From positions 135,214-199,213 of the forward strand of contig CAWDXT010000027.1 in the NCBI GenBank assembly GCA_963806265.1: a stretch of 64,000 nucleotides of DNA, written 5' to 3'. The translations under genes were made by a program, and so were the position numbers. The stretch is from an uncultured Chloroflexia bacterium. Lineage in GTDB: Bacteria > Chloroflexota > Limnocylindria > Limnocylindrales > CSP1-4. The notes under the pieces are model-generated. The model did no database searches. It was not told the DNA's origin and saw only the letters and a list, made by a program, of their open reading frames with translations. Shown here piece after piece: positions 3,928 through 23,087 of this stretch. Numbering within the stretch: position 1 is the stretch's first letter; the number at the start of each line of letters is the position of its first letter.

Positions 3928-5885
3928 ATGGACCTCCACGTCGTGGGACCCGCCGCGACCCCCGGAGAGCGGGCCGCCGTCGACGCGGTGCTCGACCCGC
4001 TGATCGGCCCTGCGACGAGCGGCTGGGCGGGGGGTGTCCGTGACGCCTCGCTGGACGGGCACGTCGCCCGTGGTGGCCACGACGCCCGTGCACGACGGGA
4101 CCTGCTGCTGCCCGCCCTCGAGGCGGCGGTCGCCCGGACCGGCTGGCTCAGCCAGGGGGCCCTCAACCACGTCTGCCGCCGCCTGTCGGTGCCGCCCGCC
4201 GAGGCCTATGGCGTGGCAACGTTCTACGCGCTGCTGCCCACGACCGAGCGCCCGCCGGTGGTCGCGCACGTGTGCGACGACCTCGCCTGCCGGCTGGCCG
4301 GCGCGGAGCAGGTCTGCGAGGAGCTCGAGCGCACGCTCGGACCGGCCGGCGAGCCGACGCATGACGGGGCGGCAACCTGGCTCAGGAGCCCATGCCTTGG
4401 CCAGTGCGAGCGACCGACCGCGTCGCTGGTGACCATCGCCGGCGAGGAGGCAGGCTCTCTCGTGGTGGGTGAGATAACGGACGCGGACGGCGTGACGGAC
4501 ACGCTGGGCTGGGCGGTCGAGCTCGCCGCCGGCGACCCGGCCCGGGTGCGCCGGGAGCTGAGCACCAGCGGTCCCGACCCGATCGAATGGGTACGCGGGC
4601 TCGCTCCGCAGGCCGGCTCCGAGGACCTTCGACTGCTCGAGCGCGTTGGCCGCGTCGACCCCACGTCCCTCGACGCCTACCGCGCCGCGGGCGGCTACGT
4701 CGCGCTGCATCGAGCGTTCGATCATCGGCGCCGAGGCCGTGATCGACGAGGTCGTCAGGTCGCGGCTGGTCGGACGCGGCGGGGCAGCGTTCCCGACCGG
4801 ACGGAAGTGGGCGGCCGTCGCGGCGGAGTCGGATCTGCCGCGCTACGTGGTGTGCAACGCGGATGAGTCGGAGCCGGGCACGTTCAAGGACCGCGTGATC
4901 CTCGAGGAGGATCCGTTCGTGCTCATCGAGGCGATGACCATCGCCGGGTTCGCCGTCGGCGCAACGCGCGGCTTCGTGTACGTCCGCGGCGAGTACCCGG
5001 TCGCCCGGGATCGCATGGCCGGCGCGATCGACCAGGCTCGGCGCGCCGGGCTGCTTGGACCGCGTGTCGATGGCCGTGACGTTGCGTTCGACATCGAGCT
5101 CCGGATCGGCGCCGGAGCCTACATCGCCGGCGAGGAGACCGCGCTGTTCGAGTCGCTCGAGGGACGCAGGCCGGAGCCGCGCAACAAGCCCCCCTACCCG
5201 GTCGAGGTCGGCATGTTCGGCAAGCCAACCGTCATCGACAACGTCGAGACGCTCGCCAATGTGCCCCTGATCCTGCGCATGGGCGGTGAGCGCGTTCGCC
5301 TCGATCGGCACCGAAGGCTCGACGGGACCCAAGCTGTTCTGCGTCTCGGGGCACGTCGTCCGACCGGGCGTCTACGAGCTGCCGTTCGGCGCGACGCTGC
5401 GCGAGGTGATCGAGCTGGCGGGTGGCGTGCCCGAGGGTCGGGCGATCCAGGCGGTGCTGCTGGGTGGTGCCGCCGGGGCGTTCGTCGGACCCGACGAGCT
5501 CGATCTGCCGCTGACCTTCGAGGATGCACGGGCCGCCGGGGTCACGATCGGGTCGGGCGTCGTGATGGTGATGGACGAGACCACGGACCTGCCAGGCGTG
5601 CTGCGCCGTATCGCCGCCTTCTTCCGCGACGAGTCATGCGGTCAGTGCGTGCCCTGCCGGGTCGGAACGGTGCGCCAGGAGGAGCTCTTGGCCCGCCTCG
5701 CCTCGGGCAACACGCTCGGCTCCGTCGATGACGAGCTGGCCCTGTACGCGGACCTCGCGCATGCGATGCGCGATGCCTCGATCTGCGGTCTCGGCCAGAC
5801 CGCGTCCACGGCGATCGAGAGCGCGATCCGCGCCGGCCTGGTCCGGTTCGACGGCCCGCAGCAACACCGGGATGGGGAGGCCCGC
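3928..5885 (+). pseudogene. Fused NuoE-like (2Fe-2S) and NuoF-like (FMN/NAD, 4Fe-4S) diaphorase module, FdsG/FdsB-like. Two frame breaks, near 4720 and 5285.
   Basis: NuoE part: GVATFYALL...VAHVCDDLACRLAGAE...SPCLGQCERPTA. NuoF part: GRGGAAFPTGRKW...YVVCNADESEPGTFKDR...GAGAYIAGEETALFESLEG...NVETLANVP...FFRDESCGQCVPCRVGT...ASICGLGQTA. The start is ATG 3928. Confidence 0.85.
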
Positions 5886-6896
5886 ATGACAGCTGTCGAC
5901 CCCGAGCGGATCTTCCGCGAGCCTCCCGCACGCCCGTCGCGGCCACCGGTGGCGCCATCGGCGCCCGAGGTCCCGTCGGTCGAGCTCACGATCGATGGCA
6001 TGAGCGTCACCGTGCCCGCCGGCTCGACGATCCTCGATGCTGCGCGGTCGATCGGGATCGACACGCCGACGCTGTGCTACCTCGAGAGCCTCACGCCGGT
6101 CAACGCCTGCCGGGTATGCGTCGTCGAGGTCTCCGGCTCCCGTGCGCTGGTGCCCGCCTGCTCGCGGAAGGTCGAGCTGGGGATGGACGTCCAGACGAGC
6201 AGCGAGCGCGTCCGCCGCTCCCGGCGGATGGTGCTCGAGCTGCTCGGATCGTCAGTGGACGTGTCGCTCGCGGGTCCGTCGGCCCCGGATGGTGACCTGG
6301 CGCGCTACATGACCGAGTACCAGGCCGAGCCGGCACGCTTCGGAGATCCGGCTCCGGCCGGCAATGCCGATGCAGGCGGGCCGGGCGCGCAGACGCTTGC
6401 CCAGCCGGTTCGGGTCGACAACGACCTCTACGTCCGTGACTACGCGCGCTGCATCCTCTGCTACAAGTGCGTCGAGGCGTGCGGTGAGGATGCCCAGAAC
6501 ACGTTCGCGATCTCGGTCGCCGGCCGCGGCTTCGGGGCCACGATCTCGACCGAGTTCGACGTCCCGCTGCCCGAGTCGGCGTGCGTCTTCTGCGGCAACT
6601 GCATCGGTGTCTGCCCGACGGGAGCGCTGATGTTCCGGTCCGAGCACGAGATGCGCGAGGCCGGCACCTGGAACGAGGCGGCCCAGCACACGACCGACAC
6701 CATCTGCCCGTACTGCGGCGTGGGCTGCACCCTCACGCTCCATGAGCAGGACGGGGACATCGTCAAGGTCACGTCTCCGATCGAGTCCTCGGTCACGCAC
6801 GGTCACCTGTGCGTCAAGGGTCGGTTCGGGTTCGAGTTCGTCCAGCTTCGCCCGAAGGGGTCGGCGCGCGAGGACGGCCCGCCGGCCGGAGGCTGA
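5886..6896 (+). CDS. NuoG / formate-dehydrogenase-alpha N-terminal Fe-S module (2Fe-2S, 4Fe-4S clusters and the Mo-enzyme Fe4S4 domain). It ends right after the Fe4S4 domain and sits in the same frame as the NuoF part with no stop between them.
   Basis: Motifs: VELTIDGMSVTVPAGSTILDAARSIGIDTPTLCYLE...NACRVCVVEV...CILCYKCVEACGE...CVFCGNCIGVCPTGAL...ICPYCGVGCTLTLHEQDGDIVKVTSP...HGHLCVKGRFGFEFVQ. A non-homologous 16-aa tail and the stop at 6896 follow. Confidence 0.8.
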   Translation: MTAVDPERIFREPPARPSRPPVAPSAPEVPSVELTIDGMSVTVPAGSTILDAARSIGIDTPTLCYLESLTPVNACRVCVVEVSGSRALVPACSRKVELGMDVQTSSERVRRSRRMVLELLGSSVDVSLAGPSAPDGDLARYMTEYQAEPARFGDPAPAGNADAGGPGAQTLAQPVRVDNDLYVRDYARCILCYKCVEACGEDAQNTFAISVAGRGFGATISTEFDVPLPESACVFCGNCIGVCPTGALMFRSEHEMREAGTWNEAAQHTTDTICPYCGVGCTLTLHEQDGDIVKVTSPIESSVTHGHLCVKGRFGFEFVQLRPKGSAREDGPPAGG

Positions 6897-11037: not shown

Positions 11038-12075
11038 GTGAAGGTGCCTTCAATGTTCCGGGTCACGTCCCTGGCCGAGATGCCCCAGGCGCAGCTCAAC
11101 CGCTGGATCAAGCGGCTGGCGCTGGTCCTGCTGATCGGCGTCATCGGGTTCATCGCGTTCTATGCCGTCGACCGCTTCCGGGCGCCTGCGGCGCCGTTCG
11201 TCGATCGCGAGACGGCCGCCATGGAGCAGGCCGTCCGTGACGATCCGACGGACATCGCGTCACGCGGGCGGCTTGCCGACCTGTACCTCGCGGCCAACCG
11301 ATACGACGACGCCATCACCCAGTACACCGAGATCATCAACACGGGCAAGGAGGACGAGCAGGCCTACGTGAGCCGCGGGCTCGCGTACCAGTTCAAGGGC
11401 GACCTCGATGCCGCGAATACCGACTTCGGGAAGGTCGTCGAGATCGCCGGTGACCTCGAGATGGCCAACGTCGACCCCATGCTTCAGACCGCCTACTACG
11501 GAATCGGCTGGATCGCGCTGCAGCAGGCCCGGCCGAGCGACGCGGTCGACAACCTGGAGAAGGCGCTCGCGATCAAGCGCACCGACGCCGACACCATGAA
11601 CCTGCTCGGTCAGGCCTACGTGCAGACGAGCCAGCCGGACAAGGCGATCGAACAGCTGCGCAAGGCAATCCTGTTCGTGCCCACCGGCTGGGCCGACCCG
11701 TACCAGGGTCTGGCCGACGCCTACACCGCCAAGAGCAACGGTGCCGAGGCCGAATGGGCAGCCGCGATGGCCCAGGCGATGAACGTGGTGGCCGGAGGCC
11801 AGGGCGACACCAGCGCAGCCGAGGCCCGACTCGAGGCCATCGCCGACGGCGACGCCGGGCTCGACGCCAGGATCGGGCTGGGGCTGCTTGCAGAGGTCCG
11901 TGGCGACAATCCCGCCGCCACCACCTGGTACACGAAGGCGCTCGAGCTCGACAGCGAGAACACCGCCGCGCAGCTCGGGCTGAGCCGCGTGAGCACGGGC
12001 ACCCAGGGGCATCCCGACGTCATGGCGTCGCCGGCTGGCGACCTGGCTTCGCCCAACACCGAAGGGAGCAACTGA
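11038..12075 (+). CDS. Membrane-anchored TPR-repeat protein.
   Basis: N-terminal TM helix LALVLLIGVIGFIAFYAV followed by repeated TPR-like helices (RGRLADLYLAANRYDDAITQYTEIIN; AYVSRGLAYQFKGDLDAANTDFGKVVEI; NLLGQAYVQTSQPDKAIEQLRKAI). ATG 11053 with the upstream GGAG is an alternative start. The stop overlaps the next start (ATGA at 12073-12077). Confidence 0.8.
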   Translation: MKVPSMFRVTSLAEMPQAQLNRWIKRLALVLLIGVIGFIAFYAVDRFRAPAAPFVDRETAAMEQAVRDDPTDIASRGRLADLYLAANRYDDAITQYTEIINTGKEDEQAYVSRGLAYQFKGDLDAANTDFGKVVEIAGDLEMANVDPMLQTAYYGIGWIALQQARPSDAVDNLEKALAIKRTDADTMNLLGQAYVQTSQPDKAIEQLRKAILFVPTGWADPYQGLADAYTAKSNGAEAEWAAAMAQAMNVVAGGQGDTSAAEARLEAIADGDAGLDARIGLGLLAEVRGDNPAATTWYTKALELDSENTAAQLGLSRVSTGTQGHPDVMASPAGDLASPNTEGSN

Positions 12076-13124
12076 TGACTGCGTCCCCCGCCACCGCCGA
12101 TACCGTCCCGCCCGAGGGCGCCGGTCCGGCCGGCGAGATCGACGACGAGGAGCCGGAGGGTCGTCGCCGGAGGATCCTGCTCCTGCTGTTCCTGCTCACT
12201 GCCCTCCTGATCCTGATCGGGCTTGCGATCTGGTACCTGCTGTTCCGGCAGCCCATTCCCGTGCCGACGATCCCGGGCGAGACGATCATGCCGGGCTACG
12301 TGACCTCGATCTACGGCCCATCGCGGCCGATGGGTGTCGCGGTGACCGCCGACGGCGGCCGGATCTATGTCGGCCAGACTGCGGGCGACCTGACGGCCCA
12401 GATGTACGGCGCCCAGGGCGATCTCGAGGGGCAGCTGCTGCCGCCCCTGTCCACGGGCGACGAGCACGTACCGGTCTACGCCGCGGTGAACCCTGCAACC
12501 GGCGACGTGTACGTGACCGACCGGCCGACGGGCTCGATCTTCGTCTACGACGCCGACGGACAGTACCTCAGCACGATCATGCCGCCCGCGGGCATCGCTG
12601 GGTGGCAGCCGCTCGGCGCTGCGTTCGACTCCTCCGGGAACCTTTACGTTACGGATGTCGGTGCCGATCCTCCGGTGGTGCGGGAGCTGGACGCATCGGG
12701 CACGCAGGTACGCGCCTTCGGCCAGGACGAGGACATGTCGTTCCCCAATGGCGTGGCGGTTGACGGGGCGGGGTACGCGTACGTGACCGACAGCAACAAC
12801 GGCCGGCTGCTCGTGTTCGACCCGAGCGGCGCGATGGTCGCCAGCATCGGGCGCGGCGCCGGCGAGGGCAACCTCGGGCTGCCGCGCGGCGTGGCGGTCG
12901 ATGGCCAGGGTCGGGTCTACGTCGTCGACACCAGCGGCCAGATGGTGTTCGTGTACGCGCAGTACCAGGCCGGGTCGTCGCAGCTCGACTTCCTCGGCTC
13001 GTTCGGGAGCCAGGGCGTCGCCAATGGCCAGTTCGCCTACCCCAACGGAATCGCCGTCGATGGACGCGGCCGGCTGTACATCGCCGACACGACCAACGAC
13101 CGCGTGCAGTTGTGGAGCTATTGA
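12075..13124 (+). CDS. Membrane-anchored NHL-repeat beta-propeller protein.
   Basis: TM helix ILLLLFLLTALLILIGLAIWYLL followed by about six NHL-like blades (PMGVAVTADGGRIYV; NLYVTDVG; FPNGVAVDGAGYAYVTDSNNGRLLVFD; LPRGVAVDGQGRVYVVDTSG; YPNGIAVDGRGRLYIADTTNDRVQLW). Confidence 0.85.
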   Translation: MTASPATADTVPPEGAGPAGEIDDEEPEGRRRRILLLLFLLTALLILIGLAIWYLLFRQPIPVPTIPGETIMPGYVTSIYGPSRPMGVAVTADGGRIYVGQTAGDLTAQMYGAQGDLEGQLLPPLSTGDEHVPVYAAVNPATGDVYVTDRPTGSIFVYDADGQYLSTIMPPAGIAGWQPLGAAFDSSGNLYVTDVGADPPVVRELDASGTQVRAFGQDEDMSFPNGVAVDGAGYAYVTDSNNGRLLVFDPSGAMVASIGRGAGEGNLGLPRGVAVDGQGRVYVVDTSGQMVFVYAQYQAGSSQLDFLGSFGSQGVANGQFAYPNGIAVDGRGRLYIADTTNDRVQLWSY

Positions 13125-13228
13125 GCCCAGGTCAGTGGGAGGGAGGTGGGATTCGGAGCCCTGCGATGCCGCCGATCGAGGCGGCCCCGTCAAGCACAGC
13201 TACCACAGAGAAAGGAGGTGAGGACAGT

Positions 13229-14448
13229 TTGAGAAGGCTGATGCTGCTCATCGCGGCCGGAAGTCTCTGGCTGTTCCTTGCCGCGGTCCCGGTCTTCGCG
13301 GACGGTGGACCGCATGTGGCTGCGATCAACAACGGCACCGGCGGCGTCAACGCCGACAGCTGTGCCGGCTGTCACCGCGCGCACACGGCGCAGGGCCTGT
13401 ATCTCCTCGTTGAGAGCTCAGGCACCGCGCTGTGCACGAGCTGCCACGGCGACTGCCGGCACCGGCGCGACGACCAACGTCGAGCGCGGCACCCAGTACA
13501 CCCTCGGCACGGCCGACGTGCGTGGCACCACGCTCCTCGGGTACCTGCGAGGGGGTGGCTTCGTTACGGCCCGTATCGGGTCCGGCCAGGTCGCACGCGC
13601 TGGCGTCGACGAGCACGTCACGGCGTCTCGCAGCGGGCCAAGGTCCCGGTGCGAACGGCCGGCTCGCAGCCCGTGACCTCCGCCCACCTGCCCAACGTGG
13701 GCGGCGTGGTCGGAGCGGCCGACGGCGTGGCCTGGGGCAACGGCCCCAACAGCGCCACCGCCTATGCCGGGCCCGAGGTCGAGCTCGAGTGCGGGACCTG
13801 CCACAACCCGCATGGCAACGGCCAGTATCGGATCCTGAACCCGATCCCGGCGCCGGTTTCGACCGGTACCGACGACATTCGTCGAGGCCGGCACCGAGGC
13901 CCCCGTCACCGACGCGGCGCTCCCGCCCGCCGGCGACACGCGCAACTACACCATCATCCAGACGCTGAACGGCACGGGCACGCTCCTCGCGAGCCAGGTT
14001 CAGGCCCTCGGCGTCGCGGCCACGGCCGGTGACTACTGGCGGCGGTACGTCCCGTGGAACGCGGCCAGCGGTGGCGTCACGACGCCCCCAACGGCGAGCC
14101 CGCGACGTTCACCACGCAGATCGCGACGTGGTGCCTCACGTGCCACTCCCGGTACCTCAGCCAGGGGTGGGACACGCAGGAAGACGACGCGATCTACACC
14201 TACCGGCACACCTCGACCAACACCACGCGCAACTGCGTCACGTGCCACGTTGCGCATGGCTCCAACGCCCAGATGACGGGCGACTACTCCGCGAACATGG
14301 ACTACCCGGGCGGCGCCGCCGCCCCGGTGGGCGACAGCCGACTCCTGAAGATCGACAACCGTGGCACCTGCCAGGCTTGTCACGATCCGACGGGGACGAT
14401 CGTCGTGGGACATTCGTCGGCCCTACGCCGGCGCCGTTCCTCCCCTAG
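13229..14448 (+). pseudogene. Secreted hexahaem c-type cytochrome (paired-CXXCH type) with about 4-5 frame breaks. The 3' end is either 14448 or 14527 depending on frame.
   Basis: RBS AAAGGAGG at 13211-13218, then TTG 13229 / ATG 13241. Signal peptide LMLLIAAGSLWLFLAAVPVFA. Haem motifs CAGCH, CTSCH, CGTCH, CLTCH, CVTCH and CQACH are spread over ORFs 13112..14032, 13278..13676 and 14054..14527, and the homologous-looking text continues across those frames. Confidence 0.75.
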
Positions 14449-14523
14449 CGACCACTCGGTGGTGGCCGGCGACGAACGTCACGGCCACCACCTCCCAACC
14501 AGGCACATCCAACCAGGATCACG

Positions 14524-16476
14524 ATGAGCACGTCCCGCCGCCACGAACATCGAACATCCCTGGTGCTCCTGCTCTCGATCGTGGTCGTTCTCGCCGCGTC
14601 CGGGCTGACGCCGCTCGTGCCTCACGTGCGCGCCGTCGATCCGAGCCCGACACCGGCCGGGAGCCCGTCTCCCGCTCCGAGCCCGACCCTGACCCCGAAC
14701 CCGACGCCGACGCCGCGACCTGATCCATCGCCCGATCCGGCCCCGACGTCGTCGCCGAGGTCAACCATTGCGCCGGCGACCTCTCCGTCGGTCGACCCCT
14801 GCGCATCGCCAGCCGCGAGCCCAGGCGCCACGGCTGAAGCGAGCCAGTCCGCCGACCCCTCCGCGAAGCCGTCGGCGTCCCCCTCAGGGTCGCCATCGGC
14901 GACACCGCCCGAGTGCCCCTCTCCATCGCCGACCTCGTCGCCGGTCGTTGACCCGTCGTCTCCACCCGCTTCCGTGCCGCCCTCGGCGAGCCCCTCGGTG
15001 CCGCCTGGGCCGTCGCCATCGCCCACGCCGGGCACGTCGATTGAGCCATCGCCGTCCGGCTCTGCCCTCCCATCCGAGTCGGCAATGCCATCCGAGTCCG
15101 CGGCGCCATCGGCGTCGCCGGAGCCCTCCGAGTCGATCGCCCCGTCGCCGTCCCCGGCGGCCCTGGGCATCGTGGTCGGACACAGATGGGTCGACGAGAT
15201 CGCGACGACCGGGAAGGTCGCCAAGGCCGGGGTGATGGACGCCGACCTGGGCGCGATGGACCGGTTCGTCGTCTATCGCGTCCGGTTCCAGGTGTCGAAC
15301 ACGAGCGACGAGGCGGTTGAACTCACGCCCGTCCTCGAGGCCGGGTACGGCGCCCAGCCCACGGGCTGGTTCACCGTTCCCGCCGTCGATCCCCTGTACG
15401 GCAACCCGTTCTACGTGGCATCCGATGACGGCAAGGTGTTCGTGGCCCGGTCGGCCGCCATCGCTGCCGCCAAGCTGCGGGACGCCAAGGGTCCGCCGGC
15501 CACCAGGAGCCAGACGCAGGATCTCGCCCCCGGCGATGCCAGCGCCGAGCCGGCCGGCAGCCCGCACACCCGACAGCACGCCGGCTCCGGATGCCAGCCC
15601 CGCACCGGAGCATGCATCCGGCGGCCCGGGGTTTCCAGCTCGGGCCTGAACCCGGCGCCCCCGATCACGCTGCCCGCCAACAGCTTCACCGAGGTCGAGT
15701 TCGCGGTGCGTGCCACCGTGAGCGCCGCGTGGTCAGGGGTGTACGCGTTCCGCCTCCAGCCCGTTGCCGAGACGATCGACCCTGGGCAGCCCCTCGTCGT
15801 CACGATGCGGGAGCGCCCGACGATCCAGCTCACGCTCCCGCGCTCGGCCACGAACGACGCTCGAACCTCGTTCGGGGGCAACCGGTACTCGCTTGCCACG
15901 CCCGTCGCCACCACCGGCCCGCAATACCGTCTGGTGGCCGACGTGCGTCTGGCGGCAACCGTCGATCCGACGTCGCCGCACATCGAAAGCTCGCTCGCCG
16001 ACGACGGCTGCGCGGCCTGCCATTCGGCCCATCGGGCCGCCCAGCAGCCGCTGATCATGAACACCTATCGCGCCGACCCGCTTCGATCGGCGACCGAGCC
16101 CTATGACGGGGCCGACTTCGCGCTGTGCATCCAGTGCCACCAGGAATCGCCGTTCGCCGACACCAGCGGGAGCGCGAACCCGCTCACCGACTTCCCCGGC
16201 CACGGGTATCACCTCGGCATGATCGAGAACGACGGCACCGGTGGCCTGGAGATCGACACCCCGGGCGACGGGCAGGGCAATGCCCTGTGCGCCGAGTGCC
16301 ACTACAACCTGCACGGTACCCCGAGCTCGGAGCGTGGCCTGGTGATCTTCGCGCCCGACGTTGAGCCCTTCAACGGTGTGCTCACGTACGACGCGCCGAC
16401 CCAGTCGTGCACGCTGACGTGCCACGGCCGGGACCACGACGGCCTCACCTTCGCGGTGCCCTCCTCGGGGAGCTGA
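14524..16476 (+). CDS. Secreted multihaem c-type cytochrome with a roughly 180-aa Pro/Ser/Thr/Ala-rich linker.
   Basis: Signal peptide MSTSRRHEHRTSLVLLLSIVVVLAASG. Low-complexity PSPTPAGSPSPAPSPTLTPNPTPTPRPDPSPDP... covers roughly 14640-15170. The C-terminal part carries CAACH, CIQCH and CAECH plus a CTLTCH (CX3CH) motif at 16408-16425. Confidence 0.8.
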   Translation: MSTSRRHEHRTSLVLLLSIVVVLAASGLTPLVPHVRAVDPSPTPAGSPSPAPSPTLTPNPTPTPRPDPSPDPAPTSSPRSTIAPATSPSVDPCASPAASPGATAEASQSADPSAKPSASPSGSPSATPPECPSPSPTSSPVVDPSSPPASVPPSASPSVPPGPSPSPTPGTSIEPSPSGSALPSESAMPSESAAPSASPEPSESIAPSPSPAALGIVVGHRWVDEIATTGKVAKAGVMDADLGAMDRFVVYRVRFQVSNTSDEAVELTPVLEAGYGAQPTGWFTVPAVDPLYGNPFYVASDDGKVFVARSAAIAAAKLRDAKGPPATRSQTQDLAPGDASAEPAGSPHTRQHAGSGCQPRTGACIRRPGVSSSGLNPAPPITLPANSFTEVEFAVRATVSAAWSGVYAFRLQPVAETIDPGQPLVVTMRERPTIQLTLPRSATNDARTSFGGNRYSLATPVATTGPQYRLVADVRLAATVDPTSPHIESSLADDGCAACHSAHRAAQQPLIMNTYRADPLRSATEPYDGADFALCIQCHQESPFADTSGSANPLTDFPGHGYHLGMIENDGTGGLEIDTPGDGQGNALCAECHYNLHGTPSSERGLVIFAPDVEPFNGVLTYDAPTQSCTLTCHGRDHDGLTFAVPSSGS

Positions 16477-16706: not shown

Positions 16707-17957
16707 GTGAATGCGCGCGTGCTCCCGGCCACGGGTCGGGCCGCGGTGGAGAACGAGCTGCTCGCGCAGCTCGGGCTGCCGCCAAGCGCCTCGCCCGAGG
16801 ACATCGATTCAGTTCACCAATCCGCGAGCGAGTACCTCGCGGCTGCGCCCTCCGGCCTCCGTGGCTGGGCCCACGCCCAGGCCACGGCGCTCGATGCGGC
16901 GTACCTCCAGCTAACCGACCCGGTCGGTCTCCAGGGCTCGGCCCTCAGGAGCCCGGCGAGGCCGCCGACGGTCGTACCCGGCGGGCCGGCGACACCTCCG
17001 GCCCGCCGGGATTCCGTCCCGGCCGCAGAGCTCGCAACCGTCGCAGCGGCGGAAGCGGACGACGAACAGGAAGACGCACCTGTCTCCGACGCGAACGGGA
17101 CAGACTTCGACTCGCTGTATGCCTCGGTCACCCCCAGCGCCCACGCCGACATGGCCGGCGACGCGCAGCGCGTCGGCTCGCACAAGCCCCGGAAGGCGAC
17201 CGCCATCGCGGGCGCCGTCGCCGCCGAACCGGCCGCGACAACCGGACCAGCATCGGCGTCGGGTGGGATCTGGAAGCGGATCGCGCTGGCCGGTGCGGCG
17301 GTCGTGGCCGTGGTCGCCATCGCCGTTGGCGCCAACGCGGTCGTCAACGGCTCTCCGACCGATGCCACCGGGACCGACGGTGCCGCGGCACAGGCAACGG
17401 CTCCGGCGATCGACCAGGCGAAGGTCAGCAGCCTGATGGAGCAGTACCAGGCGAACCCCAAGGACACGACCGTGCTCCTGGCCCTGGCCGACGAGTTCTA
17501 CGCCGGGCAGGAGTACGACACCGCGGGTACCTGGCTGGACAAGCTGCTCGCCATCCAGCCCGAGAACGTGCAGGCGCTGCTTGCCCGGGGTGCCGTGAGC
17601 TTCAACCTGGGCGACCTGCCGGCCGCCGAGACGACCTGGAACAAGGTCGTCGCGATTGCCCCCGACAACGCGGAGGTCCACTACGACCTCGGCTTCCTGT
17701 ACCTGAACCAGACGACGCCCGACTGGGCGGGCGTTCAGCGCGAGTGGACGCTGGTGGTCAAGCTCGACCCCGGCTCCGATCTCGCTACGACCGTCCAGTC
17801 CCACCTCGACGCCCTTGCCGAGTCGTCGATGCTGCCGGCATCACCGGCCGCGTCAGGCTCGCCGGGCGGAGCGTCACCCGCTGTCTCACCCGTTGCGTCC
17901 CCGGTGGCAACGCCCGCGGCCTCGGCCGAGGCACCTGCCGCGAGCCCGCAGCCATGA
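16707..17957 (+). CDS. Single-pass membrane TPR protein with a Pro/Ala/Ser-rich C-terminal tail, possibly a cytochrome-biogenesis accessory protein.
   Basis: GGGAGG RBS at 16695-16700 and GTG 16707. TM helix IALAGAAVVAVVAIAVGANAVV. TPR-like region LALADEFYAGQEYDTAGTWLDKLLAIQPENVQALLARGAVSFNLGDLPAAETTWNKVVAIAPDNAEVHYDLGFLY. It lies immediately upstream of resB. The function is inferred only from this context. Confidence 0.65.
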   Translation: MNARVLPATGRAAVENELLAQLGLPPSASPEDIDSVHQSASEYLAAAPSGLRGWAHAQATALDAAYLQLTDPVGLQGSALRSPARPPTVVPGGPATPPARRDSVPAAELATVAAAEADDEQEDAPVSDANGTDFDSLYASVTPSAHADMAGDAQRVGSHKPRKATAIAGAVAAEPAATTGPASASGGIWKRIALAGAAVVAVVAIAVGANAVVNGSPTDATGTDGAAAQATAPAIDQAKVSSLMEQYQANPKDTTVLLALADEFYAGQEYDTAGTWLDKLLAIQPENVQALLARGAVSFNLGDLPAAETTWNKVVAIAPDNAEVHYDLGFLYLNQTTPDWAGVQREWTLVVKLDPGSDLATTVQSHLDALAESSMLPASPAASGSPGGASPAVSPVASPVATPAASAEAPAASPQP

Positions 17958-18050
17958 GCGGCCACGGTGGACGGGCAAGGATGCTCACCCATTCACGAAT
18001 CCGGCCGGTGACCGTTGTGTCGCCGCTGGGCCGGTAGGAGGTCGTCGGAC

Positions 18051-19517
18051 ATGACCCACGAGGTTGGCTCCCGGCCGCTGTCCAAGGCGACCCCACCGGC
18101 CGCCCGCCCGGCGGCCAAGCCGAGCGCAATGGATTACGTGGACCGCGGGCTCGAGGCGCTATGGTCGTTCCTGACCTCGATGCGGCTGGCCATGGTCCTG
18201 CTGCTCGCGCTCGCGGCGCTCGGCGTGATCGGGTCGATCGTCGTGCAGGCGCCCCAGGGCGTGCTGAGCGACTCGTCGGCCAAGGCCGACTTCCTGGCCG
18301 AGGTCCGCCCCAAGTACGGCGGCTGGACGGGGCTCATGGACACCTTCCAGCTGTTCGACATCTTCAACTCGCTGCTGTTCAGGATCCTGATGGCGGGGCT
18401 GACGATCAGCCTCATCGCGTGCTCCATTCACCGGACACCGGGCATCTGGCGCACGATCACCAGGCCGCGGCTGGACGTCGGCGCCGGCTTCTTCGAGCAC
18501 GCGCCCCAGCACGAGGCCGTGGTCGTGCGGCACACCCCGGCGGAGACCCTCTCGATCGTGACCGGCGTCCTGCGCCATCGCCGCTACCGCACGCTGTCGA
18601 GCGATGACGGCACCATCCACGTTTACGGCGACCGGTTCCGCTGGGCCCTGTTCTCGGGGCTGATCGGCCATCTCGCGTTGGTGGTCATCCTCGCGGGCGT
18701 GATCATCGGCGCCTACTTCGGCTACCGGAACTCGAACTTCACGATCGCCGAAGGCAGCACCCTCGCGGTGGGCGCCGAACCCGGGCTCGAGCTGCAGCTG
18801 ATCGACTTCACCGACAGCTACTACCCCGACACCGGTGCCCCCGAGGACTACGCGAGCCAGGTCGTCCTGTACAAGGACGGGGCCGAGGTCGCCCGCCAGA
18901 CCATCCGGGTCAACGACCCGCTCCACTACGGCGACACGACCTTCTACCAGGCGTACTTCGGCCCGGCGGCCGTGATGACGATCAAGGATGCGAGCGGGAA
19001 CGAGGTCTACAACGAAGGCGTCCCGCTGGCCTACTCGGCCGAGGGCGGCCGACGGGCCGCGATCTTCCTGATCCCCGGCACCAGCTACACGGGCGAGCTC
19101 GTGTCGACGCTCGGAACCACGGACGCGGACATCAAGCCGGGACAGATGCAGGTCACGCTGTATTCACGCGACAGCGGCTCGGTCGTCGACAGCCAGGTCG
19201 TCGATCAGGGCACGGCGGCGACGGTGGGCGACCTGACCGTGACCTTCGATCGCGAGAGCCAGTTCACGGGGCTCAGCGTGTCGCGGGACCCCGGTGTGAT
19301 GCTGGTCTGGCTGGGCGGCGCGCTGCTGTTCGGTGGGTTCGCCCTCCGGTTCCTCCTCCCGCACAAGCGCGTCTGGGCGCGCATCACCCCGCGCGGCAAG
19401 GACGGCGCCGTGCTCGCGATGGCGAGCCTCGGCAGCCGCGACGCGGCGCTGGGCACCGATTTCGAGAAGCTCGTCAGCGACGTCCGCGCGGCGCTCCAGG
19501 CGCCGGCGCGGGCCTGA
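18051..19517 (+). CDS. resB: Cytochrome c biogenesis protein ResB/CcsB (System II).
   Basis: AGGAGG RBS at 18036-18041. LWSFLTSMRLAMVLLLALAALGVIGSIVVQ matches the typical ResB N-terminus. It has a large extracytoplasmic domain and a C-terminal TM helix, and lies adjacent to ccsA. Confidence 0.85.
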   Translation: MTHEVGSRPLSKATPPAARPAAKPSAMDYVDRGLEALWSFLTSMRLAMVLLLALAALGVIGSIVVQAPQGVLSDSSAKADFLAEVRPKYGGWTGLMDTFQLFDIFNSLLFRILMAGLTISLIACSIHRTPGIWRTITRPRLDVGAGFFEHAPQHEAVVVRHTPAETLSIVTGVLRHRRYRTLSSDDGTIHVYGDRFRWALFSGLIGHLALVVILAGVIIGAYFGYRNSNFTIAEGSTLAVGAEPGLELQLIDFTDSYYPDTGAPEDYASQVVLYKDGAEVARQTIRVNDPLHYGDTTFYQAYFGPAAVMTIKDASGNEVYNEGVPLAYSAEGGRRAAIFLIPGTSYTGELVSTLGTTDADIKPGQMQVTLYSRDSGSVVDSQVVDQGTAATVGDLTVTFDRESQFTGLSVSRDPGVMLVWLGGALLFGGFALRFLLPHKRVWARITPRGKDGAVLAMASLGSRDAALGTDFEKLVSDVRAALQAPARA

Positions 19518-19530
19518 GGGAGTACCTGTC

Positions 19531-20610
19531 ATGGCAAAGATGTCCGAATACGCGTTCGTGGCGGCGATCCTGTCCACGGGCCTCGCGACGCTGCTCTACC
19601 TGATGTACGCGCTGTCAGGGCTGCGGGCGGCGCGGATGCAGACGGCCGGCGGCCCGGCCAACGGCGGGGTGCTGGGCTTCGTGTCCGGCCCGCGCACGGC
19701 GGTGATCGGCCGCTACGCGACGATCGTGGGATGGCTCGCGGTCCTGGCGATGTTCGCGAGCCTCGTGTTCCGCACCATCGCCACGGGCCATGGCCCGTTC
19801 GCCAACATGTACGAGTTCTCGATGGCGTTCGCGTTCGGCGTGCTGGCCACCTACATGTGGTTCGAGCGCCGCTACCACCAGCGGATCCTGGCGCTGGTCG
19901 CGCTGCCGGTCGCGCTGCTGATGATGATCTACGCGGCAACGATCCCGGCCGACATCGAGCCGCTCGTGCCCGCCCTCCAGAACAACCTGCTGCTGACCGT
20001 CCACGTTGCGGTCGCGATCGTCGCCTACGGCTCGTTCGCCATCGCGTTCGCGGCCTCCGCCCTGTACCTCGTTCAGACACGGTCCGGTCCCACGTTCCTG
20101 ATCGGTGCCGCGGTCGGGCTGGTGACCGGTGTCGCGTTCCTGTTCACGTCGGGCGTCGGGGAGGCGGTGTTCGCCGGCATCGCCATCTCGCTGGCCGCCT
20201 ACTTCGGAACCTGGCTCGTGCGCCGCTTCGTCCTTCGCTCGGACGCTGACGCTACCGAGGCGGGGCTCGAGGAGTCCGGCGGTCGCTGGGGCCTGCCCAG
20301 GCCGCAGGTGCTCGACGAGATCGGCTACCACGCGGTCGTGGTCGGCTTCCCGTTCCTGACCCTGACCATCATCCTCGGCGCGGTCTGGGCGAACGTCGCC
20401 TGGGGCTCCTACTGGAGCTGGGACCCCAAGGAGACGGCGTCGCTGGTGACCTGGTTCATCTACGGCGCCTACCTCCACGCGCGGGTCATGCGCGGCTGGC
20501 GCGGCAACCGTGCCGCCTGGCTGCTGGTGCTCGGCTTCGAGGCCACCCTGTTCACCTACTTCGGCAACTACTTCTTCGGCGGGCTCCACAGCTACGCCGG
20601 CCTGGGCTGA
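19531..20610 (+). CDS. ccsA: Cytochrome c assembly protein CcsA/ResC (System II haem handling).
   Basis: Polytopic membrane protein with the WWD-type motif WGSYWSWDPKETASLVTWFIYGAYLH. Confidence 0.9.
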   Translation: MAKMSEYAFVAAILSTGLATLLYLMYALSGLRAARMQTAGGPANGGVLGFVSGPRTAVIGRYATIVGWLAVLAMFASLVFRTIATGHGPFANMYEFSMAFAFGVLATYMWFERRYHQRILALVALPVALLMMIYAATIPADIEPLVPALQNNLLLTVHVAVAIVAYGSFAIAFAASALYLVQTRSGPTFLIGAAVGLVTGVAFLFTSGVGEAVFAGIAISLAAYFGTWLVRRFVLRSDADATEAGLEESGGRWGLPRPQVLDEIGYHAVVVGFPFLTLTIILGAVWANVAWGSYWSWDPKETASLVTWFIYGAYLHARVMRGWRGNRAAWLLVLGFEATLFTYFGNYFFGGLHSYAGLG

Positions 20611-20632
20611 GCCCGGCAGGGGAGCGATCGAG

Positions 20633-21235
20633 ATGAGCGCTGCTGGAGTCACGGTGCGGCACGATCGCAACGGGACCAGCCGGCTCCAGACGGTCGTCGT
20701 GGTCGTGATCACGGCGATCGTCATCGGGGCGGCGGCATGGTTCGTCAGCGGCCGGGGTGGCGACGATGGCGTCACGTCCGTCGACCTGTCGGGTGAAATC
20801 GCCGGGGCCGCCCCTGCCCTGGGCGCCATCCCGCCGGACTTCAGCGCGCAGACGTACGACGGCCAGAAGGTCGCCCTGTCGGACTACGCAGGGCAGCCGA
20901 TCTGGCTGACATTCGGCGCGTCGTGGTGCCCCGACTGCCGGACCGAGGCAACCGATGTCGAAGCCACCTACCAGGCGTACAGGGACCAGGGTCTGGTCGT
21001 GCTCGGCGTGTTCATCGACGAGAGCGCCGACGACATCGCCAGCTACGCGAAGCTGGCCGGTCTGACGTTCCCGATCGCGGTCGACCAGAACGAGCTGGTG
21101 GCCTCGACCTATCGAACGATGGGCATCCCGACCCACTTCTTCATCGGCGCCGACGGGCGGGTCAAGGAGATCCGCGTCGGGGCCCTGCCGAAGTCCGAGA
21201 TGGAGCGTGCCGTCTCGGAGATCATCAACCAGTAG
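20633..21235 (+). CDS. resA: Membrane-anchored thiol-disulfide oxidoreductase, TlpA/ResA family.
   Basis: TM anchor VVVVVITAIVIGAAAWFV, thioredoxin-fold motif WLTFGASWCPDCRTE, and GIPTHFFIGADGRV. Confidence 0.85.
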   Translation: MSAAGVTVRHDRNGTSRLQTVVVVVITAIVIGAAAWFVSGRGGDDGVTSVDLSGEIAGAAPALGAIPPDFSAQTYDGQKVALSDYAGQPIWLTFGASWCPDCRTEATDVEATYQAYRDQGLVVLGVFIDESADDIASYAKLAGLTFPIAVDQNELVASTYRTMGIPTHFFIGADGRVKEIRVGALPKSEMERAVSEIINQ

Positions 21236-21254
21236 CGACGTGACGGGTCCCAGC

Positions 21255-23087
21255 ATGCCCGGCGACGAGGGCCCCGAGGTGTCCGGGACCGATGCCGCCG
21301 ACACGCCGGGGCCGGACGCGCGCATGACCGACCCGCCGCCGGCCGTGCCGGCGGACACATCGGCGGTGGAATCGGCAGACGCTTCGCCGGCAACAGCCGG
21401 GGAATTGGCAGACGCGGCGCCGGCAGACGCGGCGCCGGCAGACGCGGCGCCGGCAACCGCCGCGTCGGAGACCTCCGGACCGGGGGCGCCCTCGACCGAG
21501 GTGTCGTCGGCCGACGCGTCGGAGCCGCCTCGACGTCGTCATCCGTTCTACCTGCGGGGACGACGCATGCGGCTGCCTCGGTCGCGCCGCGGCCTGTTCG
21601 CGCTGCTGCTCGTGCTGTCCGCGATGGGCGGCATCGCGACGTTCTCGGCGGTCACGTTGCTCAACTGGACCGAGACCGCCGACTTCTGTGGCCGCTGTCA
21701 CACCATGGCGCCCGAGCTCGCGGCCTATGAGGCCGGTCCGCACCGCGACGTCGCGTGCGCCGAATGCCACGTCGAGCCCGGTGTGGGGGGCTGGATCAAG
21801 GCCAAGCTCAATGGCACCCGCCAGCTGGTCGAGGTCGTGCTCGGCACCTTCCCGGAGCCGATCCCGCCGCCCGACCACTCGCTGCTGCCGGCGGCCTCCG
21901 ACACGTGCCAGAAGTGCCACTCGGTCGAGGCGCACCCGGTGACGACGCTCAAGACCGCCACCATCTACGCCGAGGACGAGGAGAACACGCGCCAGTTCGT
22001 CGGCCTGCTGGTCCGACCCAACGGCGGCAACCCGTTCGATGTGACCAAGAGCGTCCACTGGCACGTGCTGCGGAACGTCGGCTACTGGTCCCCCGATGTC
22101 AACGGCGCCCGGATCGACCTGGTCGAGGAGACCACCGAGGACGGGCACATCGACCAGTACATCAGCCAGGGCCAGATCACCGACAGCTCGAACGTCGACC
22201 CCGACATCGATGCCATCAAGGCCAGCCAGACGCAGACGACGATGTCCTGCTACGACTGTCACAACCGCGTCGGTCACCCGATCCCGAACCCGCGCGCCGG
22301 CCTCGACCAGGCGATGTTCACCGACGTGATCGACCCGACGCTCCCGTACATCAAGCGCGAGGGGATGCGGATCCTGTGGTCCAGCTACCCCGACGAGCAG
22401 GCGGCCGACGCGGCCGCGGACGAGCTGGCCAACTTCTACCGGGTGAACTACCCGGACGTTGCCGAGACCAGGGCCGACCAGATCGACGAGGCGATCAGCG
22501 AGATCAAGACGTTGTACCGGCTCACGGCCACGCCCGAGATGAAGGTCACGGCGAAGACCTATCCGGACAACCTCGGCCACCTCGACTTCCCGGGCTGCTT
22601 CCGATGCCACGACGGCGGCCATTTCCTGGTCGTCGACGGTGTCGCCACCAACAAGACCATCCCCGCGACCTGTGACACGTGCCATACCTTCCCGCAGCTG
22701 GGACCGGCCGTTGCCAGCCTGCCGCTTGGCGAGCCCCCGTCGACGCACGACGACGAGCTGTGGGTGTTCAACCACAAGAACGTGGCCGAGAGCCTCGATC
22801 CGGGTGGCACATCATGCGGCGAGTGCCACGCACGCGACTACTGCGTGAACTGTCACTCGACGGGTGCCGTAACGGTCGATCACGACGAGATGGCCACCAA
22901 CCACGCCAAGGTCATCCGTGACCAGGGCAACACGGCGTGTGCGTACTGCCATCAGCCGGTGTTCTGCGCCCGGTGCCACGACGAACCGGTGCTTCCGATC
23001 ACGACCCCCTTCTCCGAAGGCCCCGGGTCGAGCGCGCTGCCGGACCAACCGGCCGGCGTCAGCTGGCCGCTCACCCCGAGATCATGA
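21255..23087 (+). CDS. Membrane-anchored decahaem c-type cytochrome with a NapC/NirT-like N-terminal module.
   Basis: TM helix LFALLLVLSAMGGIATFSAVTLL, then CGRCH, CAECH, CQKCH, CYDCH, CFRCH, CDTCH, CGECH, CVNCH, CAYCH and CARCH. The layout TETADFCGRCHTMAPE...PHRDVACAECH is typical of NapC/NirT/CymA-type proteins. Alternative starts are GTG 21240 and ATG 21324. Confidence 0.85.
   Translation: MPGDEGPEVSGTDAADTPGPDARMTDPPPAVPADTSAVESADASPATAGELADAAPADAAPADAAPATAASETSGPGAPSTEVSSADASEPPRRRHPFYLRGRRMRLPRSRRGLFALLLVLSAMGGIATFSAVTLLNWTETADFCGRCHTMAPELAAYEAGPHRDVACAECHVEPGVGGWIKAKLNGTRQLVEVVLGTFPEPIPPPDHSLLPAASDTCQKCHSVEAHPVTTLKTATIYAEDEENTRQFVGLLVRPNGGNPFDVTKSVHWHVLRNVGYWSPDVNGARIDLVEETTEDGHIDQYISQGQITDSSNVDPDIDAIKASQTQTTMSCYDCHNRVGHPIPNPRAGLDQAMFTDVIDPTLPYIKREGMRILWSSYPDEQAADAAADELANFYRVNYPDVAETRADQIDEAISEIKTLYRLTATPEMKVTAKTYPDNLGHLDFPGCFRCHDGGHFLVVDGVATNKTIPATCDTCHTFPQLGPAVASLPLGEPPSTHDDELWVFNHKNVAESLDPGGTSCGECHARDYCVNCHSTGAVTVDHDEMATNHAKVIRDQGNTACAYCHQPVFCARCHDEPVLPITTPFSEGPGSSALPDQPAGVSWPLTPRS
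21407..21451 (+). repeat. 15-bp tandem repeat x3 (GGCAGACGCGGCGCC) inside the decahaem cytochrome N-terminal tail.
   Basis: Read directly. It encodes ADAAPADAAPADAAP. A degenerate copy lies at about 21374-21388. Confidence 0.9.

Follow-up and report, generated by a model that had tools for sequence, protein, structure and literature searches.

Surveys of multihaem cytochromes count the variant motifs CX3CH and CX4CH as genuine haem sites. For instance, a CX3CH is present at haem 1 in one MtrA branch, and the tetrahaem cytochromes c3 carry a CX4CH. The subject of this text is a further motif of this kind, the C-T-L-T-C-H that closes an exported cytochrome encoded in the window (a stretch of 64,000 nucleotides from the genome of an uncultured Chloroflexia bacterium, a Limnocylindria-type member of the soil Chloroflexota, assembly GCA_963806265.1, contig CAWDXT010000027.1), together with the gene module around that cytochrome. 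In Wolinella succinogenes, the maturation of haem sites is divided among System II isoenzymes, with NrfI for CXXCK, CcsA1 for the CX15CH of MccA and CcsA2 for general use. According to reports on E. coli, its System I matures CX3CH with no need for a dedicated lyase. There are precedents for CX3CH sites as well as for accessory ResB/CcsA pairs, and the motif itself is not new; the window protein is an uncharacterised protein of an ordinary kind, that is, a multihaem cytochrome whose variant site is of a type already described.

Cytochromes are also found in gene clusters connected with extracellular electron transfer. The Uet cluster of Candidatus Tenderia and Gallionella, for which extracellular electron exchange has been proposed, encodes the undecahaem UetJ, the extracellular tetrahaem UetA, trihaem cytochromes and NHL-repeat proteins. 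A similar gene combination, also of the extracellular electron-transfer type, is seen in the NHL-containing cytochrome clusters of the diderm Desulfovibrio ferrophilus. Among monoderms, Thermincola potens has OcwA, a cell-surface protein with nine haems that is related to NrfA and has been proposed as the end of a conduit through the thick envelope.

The favoured reading of the window protein, to which a probability of roughly 0.6 is given as a whole, is that it would be the distal element of a conduit spanning the cell envelope. According to this proposal, the protein would consist of a Sec signal, a flexible stalk of ~180 residues rich in Pro, Ser, Thr and Ala, an immunoglobulin (Ig)-like beta-sandwich and a compact module with four bis-His haems, three of them attached via CXXCH and the last via the family-defining C-T-L-T-C-H. 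A NapC/NirT-type multihaem quinol dehydrogenase would feed electrons to a hexahaem cytochrome and then to the stalked tetrahaem cytochrome, with the assistance of an NHL propeller and two TPR proteins, and the System II proteins of the module (ResB, CcsA and ResA) would mature its cytochromes. The most likely role would be electron exchange across the cell envelope, with the protein presumably placed at the surface and an external acceptor or donor as its partner.

The evidence for the cytochrome comes first from its homologues. A search of a collection of 5.8 billion proteins with residues 216-650 found 173 relatives, and when 1.84 billion cluster representatives were scanned exhaustively with the 176-aa module in HMMER, 194 proteins had E <= 0.001, each standing for a cluster at 50% identity. 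In an alignment of 16 sequences, that is, the window protein and 15 other homologues, C629, T630, L631, C633, H634 and H638 are invariant in all 16, as are the three CXXCH motifs and H486, H503, H560, H563 and H597. All eight cysteines of the module fall within the four haem motifs, and the six additional invariant histidines are candidate distal ligands. With three CXXCH, one CX3CH and enough candidate ligands, the protein has the predicted makeup of a multihaem cytochrome. Beyond this alignment, 53 of 54 close homologues carry CTL[TVMR]CH, the lone exception having a single CXXCH and appearing truncated or broken. In 49 of the 53 carriers, 9-20 residues separate the motif from the C-terminus; a few members bear an extra C-terminal domain beyond the motif, which still always closes the haem module. 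Similarly, C-x-L-x-C-H is found in 127 of 140 further representatives at 50% identity, and the other 13 are fragments or have frame-shifted ends. Such conservation of Cys, Leu, Cys and His across the family means that the CX3CH is not a chance occurrence. Both cysteines and the histidine are kept at a fixed spacing in diverged homologues (53/54 and 127/140), as would be expected of a genuine variant site. Judged by these alignments, the CX3CH can be regarded as the hallmark of the family, and CTLTCH is very probably a fourth haem site.

An earlier description, made from the letters of this DNA alone and called here the sequence-only reading, had placed a possible CX3CH at exactly this position and had named the absence of its cysteines from homologues as the result that would speak against it; instead, the cysteines and the histidine proved invariant. 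Its account of the open reading frame, of the linker rich in Pro, Ser, Thr and Ala, of the haem-free domain in the middle and of the motifs CAACH, CIQCH and CAECH also agrees with the present one.

The family comprises two subfamilies, one with 3+1 haems, to which the window protein belongs, and another with 7+1 haems, which retains the same terminal motif. In the 7+1 relatives (P0022-P0072; 620-830 aa), four additional CXXCH are located between the first and second haem sites of the 3+1 form. The genome of the window has no second multihaem open reading frame with a CX3CH, the cytochrome studied here being the only one. Twelve full-length relatives of 500-563 aa, with 46-60% identity, have a signal peptide, a proline/threonine (PT)-rich stretch, the beta region and the haem module. 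No Pfam family scored above threshold for the window protein, whose beta region has no family match, and nothing in NCBIfam was above the cut-offs (TIGR01905, 15.3 vs 25.2).

The gene itself is under purifying selection. Relative to the orthologue of the closest relative (G050), the haem module has a ratio of nonsynonymous to synonymous substitution rates (dN/dS) of 0.13, and values of 0.13-0.26 were obtained for the beta region. Its first codon is preceded, at a distance of five bases, by an AGGA that can be read directly from the sequence, and the ATG at 14524 is taken as the start because the N-terminus is conserved in the homologues. This N-terminus has a basic n-region (SRRHEHR), a 17-residue hydrophobic core (LVLLLSIVVVLAASGL) whose mean hydropathy reaches 2.8, and VRA followed by VDP; the pattern VPxVRA(V/L)DP at its end is kept in 13 homologues in the alignment. 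Cleavage by signal peptidase I is likely to occur at VRA/VDP, and the whole is predicted to be a Sec-type signal peptide, the export signal that a c-type multihaem cytochrome would need, since its haem is attached outside the cytoplasm. The public protein record of the product has only 434 aa; therefore, the public gene call omits all of 14524-15168, with the signal peptide and the PT stalk. Several database homologues of 360-413 aa appear to have been shortened likewise or by contig ends.

Proline, serine, alanine and threonine make up 78% of residues 40-215 (54 P, 46 S, 25 A and 13 T in 176). A PT-rich stretch of ~100-130 aa, together with a signal peptide, is present in the twelve full-length homologues, and in G050, an independent assembly, the linker is longer, with ~237 residues ahead of the beta region. 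Two cysteines of the stalk, C93 and C131, recur in G050 and are absent from the linkers of the other homologues. The possibility that the linker was a product of assembly collapse or expansion, raised by the sequence-only reading, was rejected: the tandem arrays in the window linker are small (6 nt x 6.5 copies and 18 nt x 3.7 copies), and the linker of G050 is comparably long and has the same cysteines. The linker is real and, recurring among the homologues, is a family trait.

The surroundings of the gene are conserved as well. Eighty loci were fetched from GTDB species representatives, 53 of them at least 14 kb long. In 51 of these 53, an NHL protein is encoded upstream, and ResB, CcsA, ResA and a NapC-type cytochrome downstream, on one strand. 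The conserved loci come from Chloroflexota and from metagenome-assembled genomes (MAGs) labelled Actinomycetota. One homologous locus, L030, has the same gene order as the window with all its genes intact, plus CcdA. Upstream of the module, the window encodes a two-component system and, according to the sequence-only reading, a Rieske protein. By gene content, a quinol dehydrogenase, a multihaem relay and NHL and TPR helpers in one operon would make this a module of the Uet/DFE type.

The genome of the window has two ResB/CcsA sets, one beside the cytochrome together with ResA and the other elsewhere. A cytochrome c maturation system is, thus, present, with ResB, CcsA and ResA downstream of the gene and a second ResB/CcsA. 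Within the genus, the haem module is found in 42 of 61 genomes. Most genomes of the genus have two CcsA paralogues, and where the haem module and the higher-scoring one occur together, they are 4-5 kb apart in essentially all cases, with the second paralogue elsewhere; the haem module is missing from the genomes that have the second paralogue alone. A paralogous CcsA/ResB is, therefore, linked to an atypical cytochrome, both across the genus and in the 51 of 53 long loci, as in the Wolinella type of arrangement. The WWD motif does not discriminate the two CcsA paralogues, since both are canonical. The linkage fits a maturation system dedicated to the module and is compatible with a dedicated lyase for CX3CH, the kind of enzyme that, in the sequence-only reading, rare spacings were said to need in some systems. 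Nevertheless, the module also holds ~16 canonical sites, so the linkage is not evidence of CX3CH specificity. A bolder proposal holds that the synthase formed by the ResB and CcsA of the module is specialised for C-x-L-x-C-H, that the stalked protein, maybe glycosylated, would be the outermost part of a new monoderm conduit, and that horizontal gene transfer between soil Chloroflexota and Actinomycetota took place; taken together, this is improbable. Relative to its L030 orthologue, the CcsA of the window has an insert of ~59 aa (20089-20265) that is hydrophobic enough for additional membrane helices, as is also the case in G050, and the matches to the module-linked CcsA across the genus have two span lengths, ~590 and ~785 nt.

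In a structure prediction with AlphaFold2 (54 aligned sequences), residues 216-315 and 365-430 form a beta-sandwich with high confidence (predicted local distance difference test score, pLDDT, >90), whereas the loop between its two halves is disordered (pLDDT <50) and the haem part is weakly modelled. When the beta region was compared with the PDB by Foldseek, only generic Ig-like domains were matched (E > 0.03). A search of PDB sequences with the full profile produced matches to the PT linker and a weak hit to 7tfs_A, a 232-aa cytochrome c that we take to be OmcE (E = 0.003). This hit is at profile positions 355-389, which we take to lie in the haem block that is added in the 7+1 subfamily and is not part of the window protein.

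Several results weigh against the favoured reading. For this module, no substrate and no terminal reductase or oxidase was identified, and it could serve a pathway internal to the envelope. The window protein has no cell-wall anchor, lipobox or sortase signal, which leaves its retention at the surface unexplained. It also falls short of the threshold of PF09699 (Paired_CXXCH_1; 19.9 vs 20.6 bits), for which some homologues do have a precomputed match, and of the gathering cut-off of PF22113 (MtrC/MtrF domains II/IV; 18.2 vs 30 bits). A module-only AlphaFold2 model (119 sequences) had a pLDDT of 68, the haem module model had no Foldseek match in the PDB, and a module-only profile found nothing significant among PDB sequences. 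As neither the sequence searches nor the fold searches led to a matching solved structure, the haem count and the ligation are read from the motifs.

The alternative that survives best is that the module is not an extracellular conduit, but part of a respiratory or detoxifying pathway within the envelope that acts, for instance, on soluble nitrogen, sulfur or metal species, with the stalk tethering the cytochrome near the membrane. Neither a porin nor a mineral-binding domain nor a known terminal reductase was found, the matches of the beta-sandwich region are to generic folds only, and the Rieske protein and two-component system upstream fit many respiratory chains. Nevertheless, a NapC-type quinol dehydrogenase, small multihaem cytochromes and NHL and TPR proteins together resemble the Uet cluster and the extracellular clusters of the Desulfovibrio ferrophilus type, and a PT stalk of 180 aa is of a length that could span a cell wall. 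The lineage is generally regarded as being without an outer membrane, and the lack of a porin in the module fits such a lineage. Confinement to the envelope is, on balance, considered unlikely, although it is the most credible of the alternatives to a conduit ending in the stalked cytochrome.

A different doubt concerns part of the protein as assembled. The sequence-only reading had described positions 15500-15650 as compositionally out of character and as possibly hiding compensating indels. The first of these claims holds, as the codon-usage log-odds in the gene frame are negative in 16-codon windows that start at 15554-15602 and nowhere else. The odd segment, ...TRSQTQDLAPGDASAEPAGSPHTRQHAGSGCQPRTGACIRRPGVSSSG at about 15503-15645, includes an insert that is absent from all 15 aligned homologues and has a pLDDT <50 in the AlphaFold2 model; genomic matches in relatives break at its position. 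In G050, which is 84% identical over residues 369-650, the same position is occupied by an 18-nt tandem repeat of 12.5 copies, GACGCCAGTCCGGTGGCC, which encodes DASPVA and is in frame with the downstream GVSSSGLNPAP. The beta-sandwich loop is a hotspot of repeat expansion in this sublineage. That the insert was a mobile or repeated element was rejected, as the 146-nt stretch examined has no other copy in the 3.1-Mb assembly, where only chance matches of 16-40 nt were seen.

The window keeps degenerate copies of the repeat. The sequence GATGCCAGC is found at 15535 in frame 0 and at 15590 in frame +1, 55 nt apart, that is, 3x18+1. From 15572, the units in the +1 frame are DSTPAP, DASPAP and EHASGG, and the PT linker of the L030 homologue matches window positions 15527-15607 in this same frame. 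The text of the shifted stretch is HTRQHAGSGCQPRTGACIRRPG in frame 0 and DSTPAPDASPAPEHASGGPG in the +1 frame; the former includes two cysteines and an Arg-rich stretch that are in none of the 15 homologues aligned here. Given the spacing of the repeats and the evidence on frame, HTRQHAGSGCQPRTGACIRRPG is a +1-shifted reading of a repeat-derived loop between two homopolymers. The frame has to change at the CCC run (15569-15571), where an extra C is suspected, and to be restored at the GGGG run (15628-15631), where one G is suspected to be missing. The claim of hidden compensating indels, thus, stands with one correction: the +1/-1 pair that repeats and frame indicate is within a lineage-specific insert, and not in conserved sequence. 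Compensating indels in conserved sequence were rejected because the shift lies inside the insert, where the homologues have no residues.

The out-of-register stretch is probably an artefact. The disordered repeat loop would have been read with a one-base shift as a result of two homopolymer errors in a long-read assembly, with the folded domains unaffected, and the indels would be errors rather than real mutations. If so, the peptide DSTPAPDASPAPEH would be expected instead of the HTRQHAGSGCQPRTGACIRRPG that was assembled. The other possibility, namely, that genuine +1 and -1 mutations were both fixed in the organism, in a disordered loop that tolerates them, and that the protein is made as assembled, is quite unlikely. 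It is true that frame 0 is open throughout, with a guanine plus cytosine content at third codon positions that stays at 0.83-0.97, that the loop is disordered and varies in length among relatives, and that compensated frameshifts are known to occur in low-complexity loops. Codon statistics also show no clear preference for +1, and no other frame is clearly better at 15554-15602. Nevertheless, both suspected sites are homopolymer runs, two cysteines would be added to an exported haem protein in a place where 0 of 15 aligned homologues have them, and the same assembly contains further breaks, including five in a neighbouring gene that is under purifying selection.

This neighbouring gene encodes the hexahaem cytochrome of the module. 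Its frame switches were scored against the intact L030 orthologue, and the window genes next to it are unbroken. The gene of G050 also has at least five switches, some of them at the sites seen in the window. With the frame defined by homology, its dN/dS between the window and G050 is 0.13, and that of the two shifted segments of the window 0.17 and 0.23. The ratio of 0.13 excludes old, inherited frameshifts and indicates a functional gene; the idea of an old pseudogene was rejected on these values, which include the shifted segments. In effect, the breaks look like clustered and partly systematic assembly errors. The second ResB and the second CcsA of the genome are likewise each split across two frames (G000 C20:38314-39568; C24:54500-55098); in the second CcsA, the break is directly before the WSRYWGWD motif. 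Other module genes are broken in the related MAGs G001 and G063. A large number of the relatives are contig-poor MAGs with the label 'MFD', presumably long-read assemblies, and we assume that L030 is from a short-read MAG. The genome of the window (3.1 Mb in 38 contigs) has an estimated completeness of 63%, and indel errors are a possible cause of this value.

The weakest alternative, that CTLTCH binds no haem and that the cytochrome is trihaem, with C629 and C633 joined in a disulfide or ligating a metal and H634 and H638 as no more than distal ligands of other haems, would fit the non-canonical spacing of CX3CH, the weakly modelled haem module that has no structural relative and the fact that six spare invariant histidines alone leave the haem count unfixed, but it is very improbable, since Cys, Cys and His are co-conserved at fixed spacing in ~180 diverged sequences, a histidine lies four residues beyond CTLTCH just as at CAECH...H, the 7+1 subfamily has the same terminal motif and CX3CH is counted among the haem sites in surveys of other multihaem cytochromes.

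Table 1. Positions of the cytochrome, its parts and the genes of its module. Positions refer to the window except in the last row.
Feature	Position	Strand	Basis or remark
Exported 3+1-haem cytochrome gene	14524..16476	+	650 aa; coordinates include stop codon
Ribosome-binding site AGGA (putative)	14515..14518	+	direct reading of the sequence
Signal peptide (predicted), residues 1-37	14524..14634	+	hydropathy peak 2.8; homologue alignment
Pro/Ser/Ala/Thr-rich stalk, residues 38-215 (178 aa)	14635..15168	+	composition; homologues; repeat search
Stalk cysteines C93, C131	14800-14802, 14914-14916	+	common to window and G050, in DPCASP and PPECPSP
Ig-like beta-sandwich region, residues 216-475	15169..15948	+	AlphaFold2; no haem motifs; split by disordered loop
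Loop insert of ~36 aa, residues ~329-364	15508..15615	+	degenerate remnant of 18-nt (PDASPA-type) tandem repeat
Stretch out of register by one base	15569..15631	+	repeat spacing, G050 frame, L030 linker match, coding-score drop
C-terminal four-haem module (predicted), residues 484-650	15973..16473	+	alignment: all 8 Cys and 10 His invariant
Haem site 1, CAACH	16009..16023	+	motif in sequence, alignment
Haem site 2, CIQCH	16126..16140	+	motif in sequence, alignment
Haem site 3, CAECH	16288..16302	+	motif in sequence, alignment
CX3CH site CTLTCH, probable haem site 4	16408..16425	+	invariant H638 next; consensus C-x-L-x-C-H
TPR protein, first module gene	11038..12075	+	gene order shared with L030
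NHL-repeat beta-propeller protein	12081..13124	+	Pfam scan, synteny
Hexahaem cytochrome gene	13154..14448	+	five frame switches, near 13451, 13610, 13875, 14085 and 14408
Second TPR protein	16707..17957	+	true start near 16707, not 16407
ResB/CcsB, System II embedded in module	18015..19517	+	Pfam ResB, E = 1.4e-72
CcsA ('type A' paralogue)	19531..20610	+	WGSYWSWD motif intact
ResA-like thiol-disulfide oxidoreductase	20510..21235	+	annotation
NapC/NirT-type multihaem cytochrome	21207..23087	+	9 CXXCH passed local coding-score filter; ten counted in the sequence-only reading
DASPVA repeat of G050	L110 = G050:C8, 6828-7052	reverse complement	inside beta-sandwich loop of the orthologue

Elsewhere in the window, the coding signal at 4778-5316 switches frame at ~5315, just upstream of the open reading frame at 5286-6896. 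The latter begins in the middle of a NuoF-like protein, with the SLBB and NADH_4Fe-4S domains first, and a further frameshift is probably present there.

The ~190 clusters at 50% identity make up a cytochrome family that is so far uncharacterised, defined here by a terminal CX3CH as its signature and found mainly in abundant, uncultured Chloroflexota of soil and sediment. In a conserved module of ~12 kb with nine genes, also seen in Actinomycetota, the family is accompanied by haem-attachment genes of its own, and this offers a clonable test case for whether System II synthases discriminate between spacings of the haem motif. The system also bears on the passage of electrons through the wall in bacteria that have no outer membrane. 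In addition, clustered frameshifts in contig-poor MAGs of this sort can mimic pseudogenes and odd protein segments.

As in the MtrA branch, the variant site of the window family has three residues between the cysteines and is embedded among canonical CXXCH motifs. In contrast to MtrA and the cytochromes c3, it is always the last site and has a consensus of its own, C-x-L-x-C-H, and its hosts are Chloroflexota and Actinomycetota that use System II. Beyond the motifs, no relation of sequence or fold between the window protein and MtrA or c3 was detectable in Pfam, NCBIfam, the PDB or Foldseek, and neither the module profile nor the models gave the window protein a significant sequence or fold score against cytochromes of the PDB. 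With Wolinella, the genome shares the possession of two ResB/CcsA sets, one of which is tightly and widely linked to a cytochrome with an atypical site; in contrast to Wolinella, the module also includes cytochromes with 6 and ~10 canonical haems, and the extra set may only add capacity. The likeness to the Uet cluster and to the clusters of D. ferrophilus is one of gene content, with small multihaem cytochromes, NHL propellers and helper proteins in one operon, although these are diderm systems with a beta-barrel porin and the module of the window has no porin, but a PT stalk and Ig-like domains. Finally, like OcwA, the window protein is an exported multihaem cytochrome that is proposed as the terminal element of an envelope conduit, although it differs from OcwA in having four predicted haem sites, a PT stalk and a beta-sandwich region.

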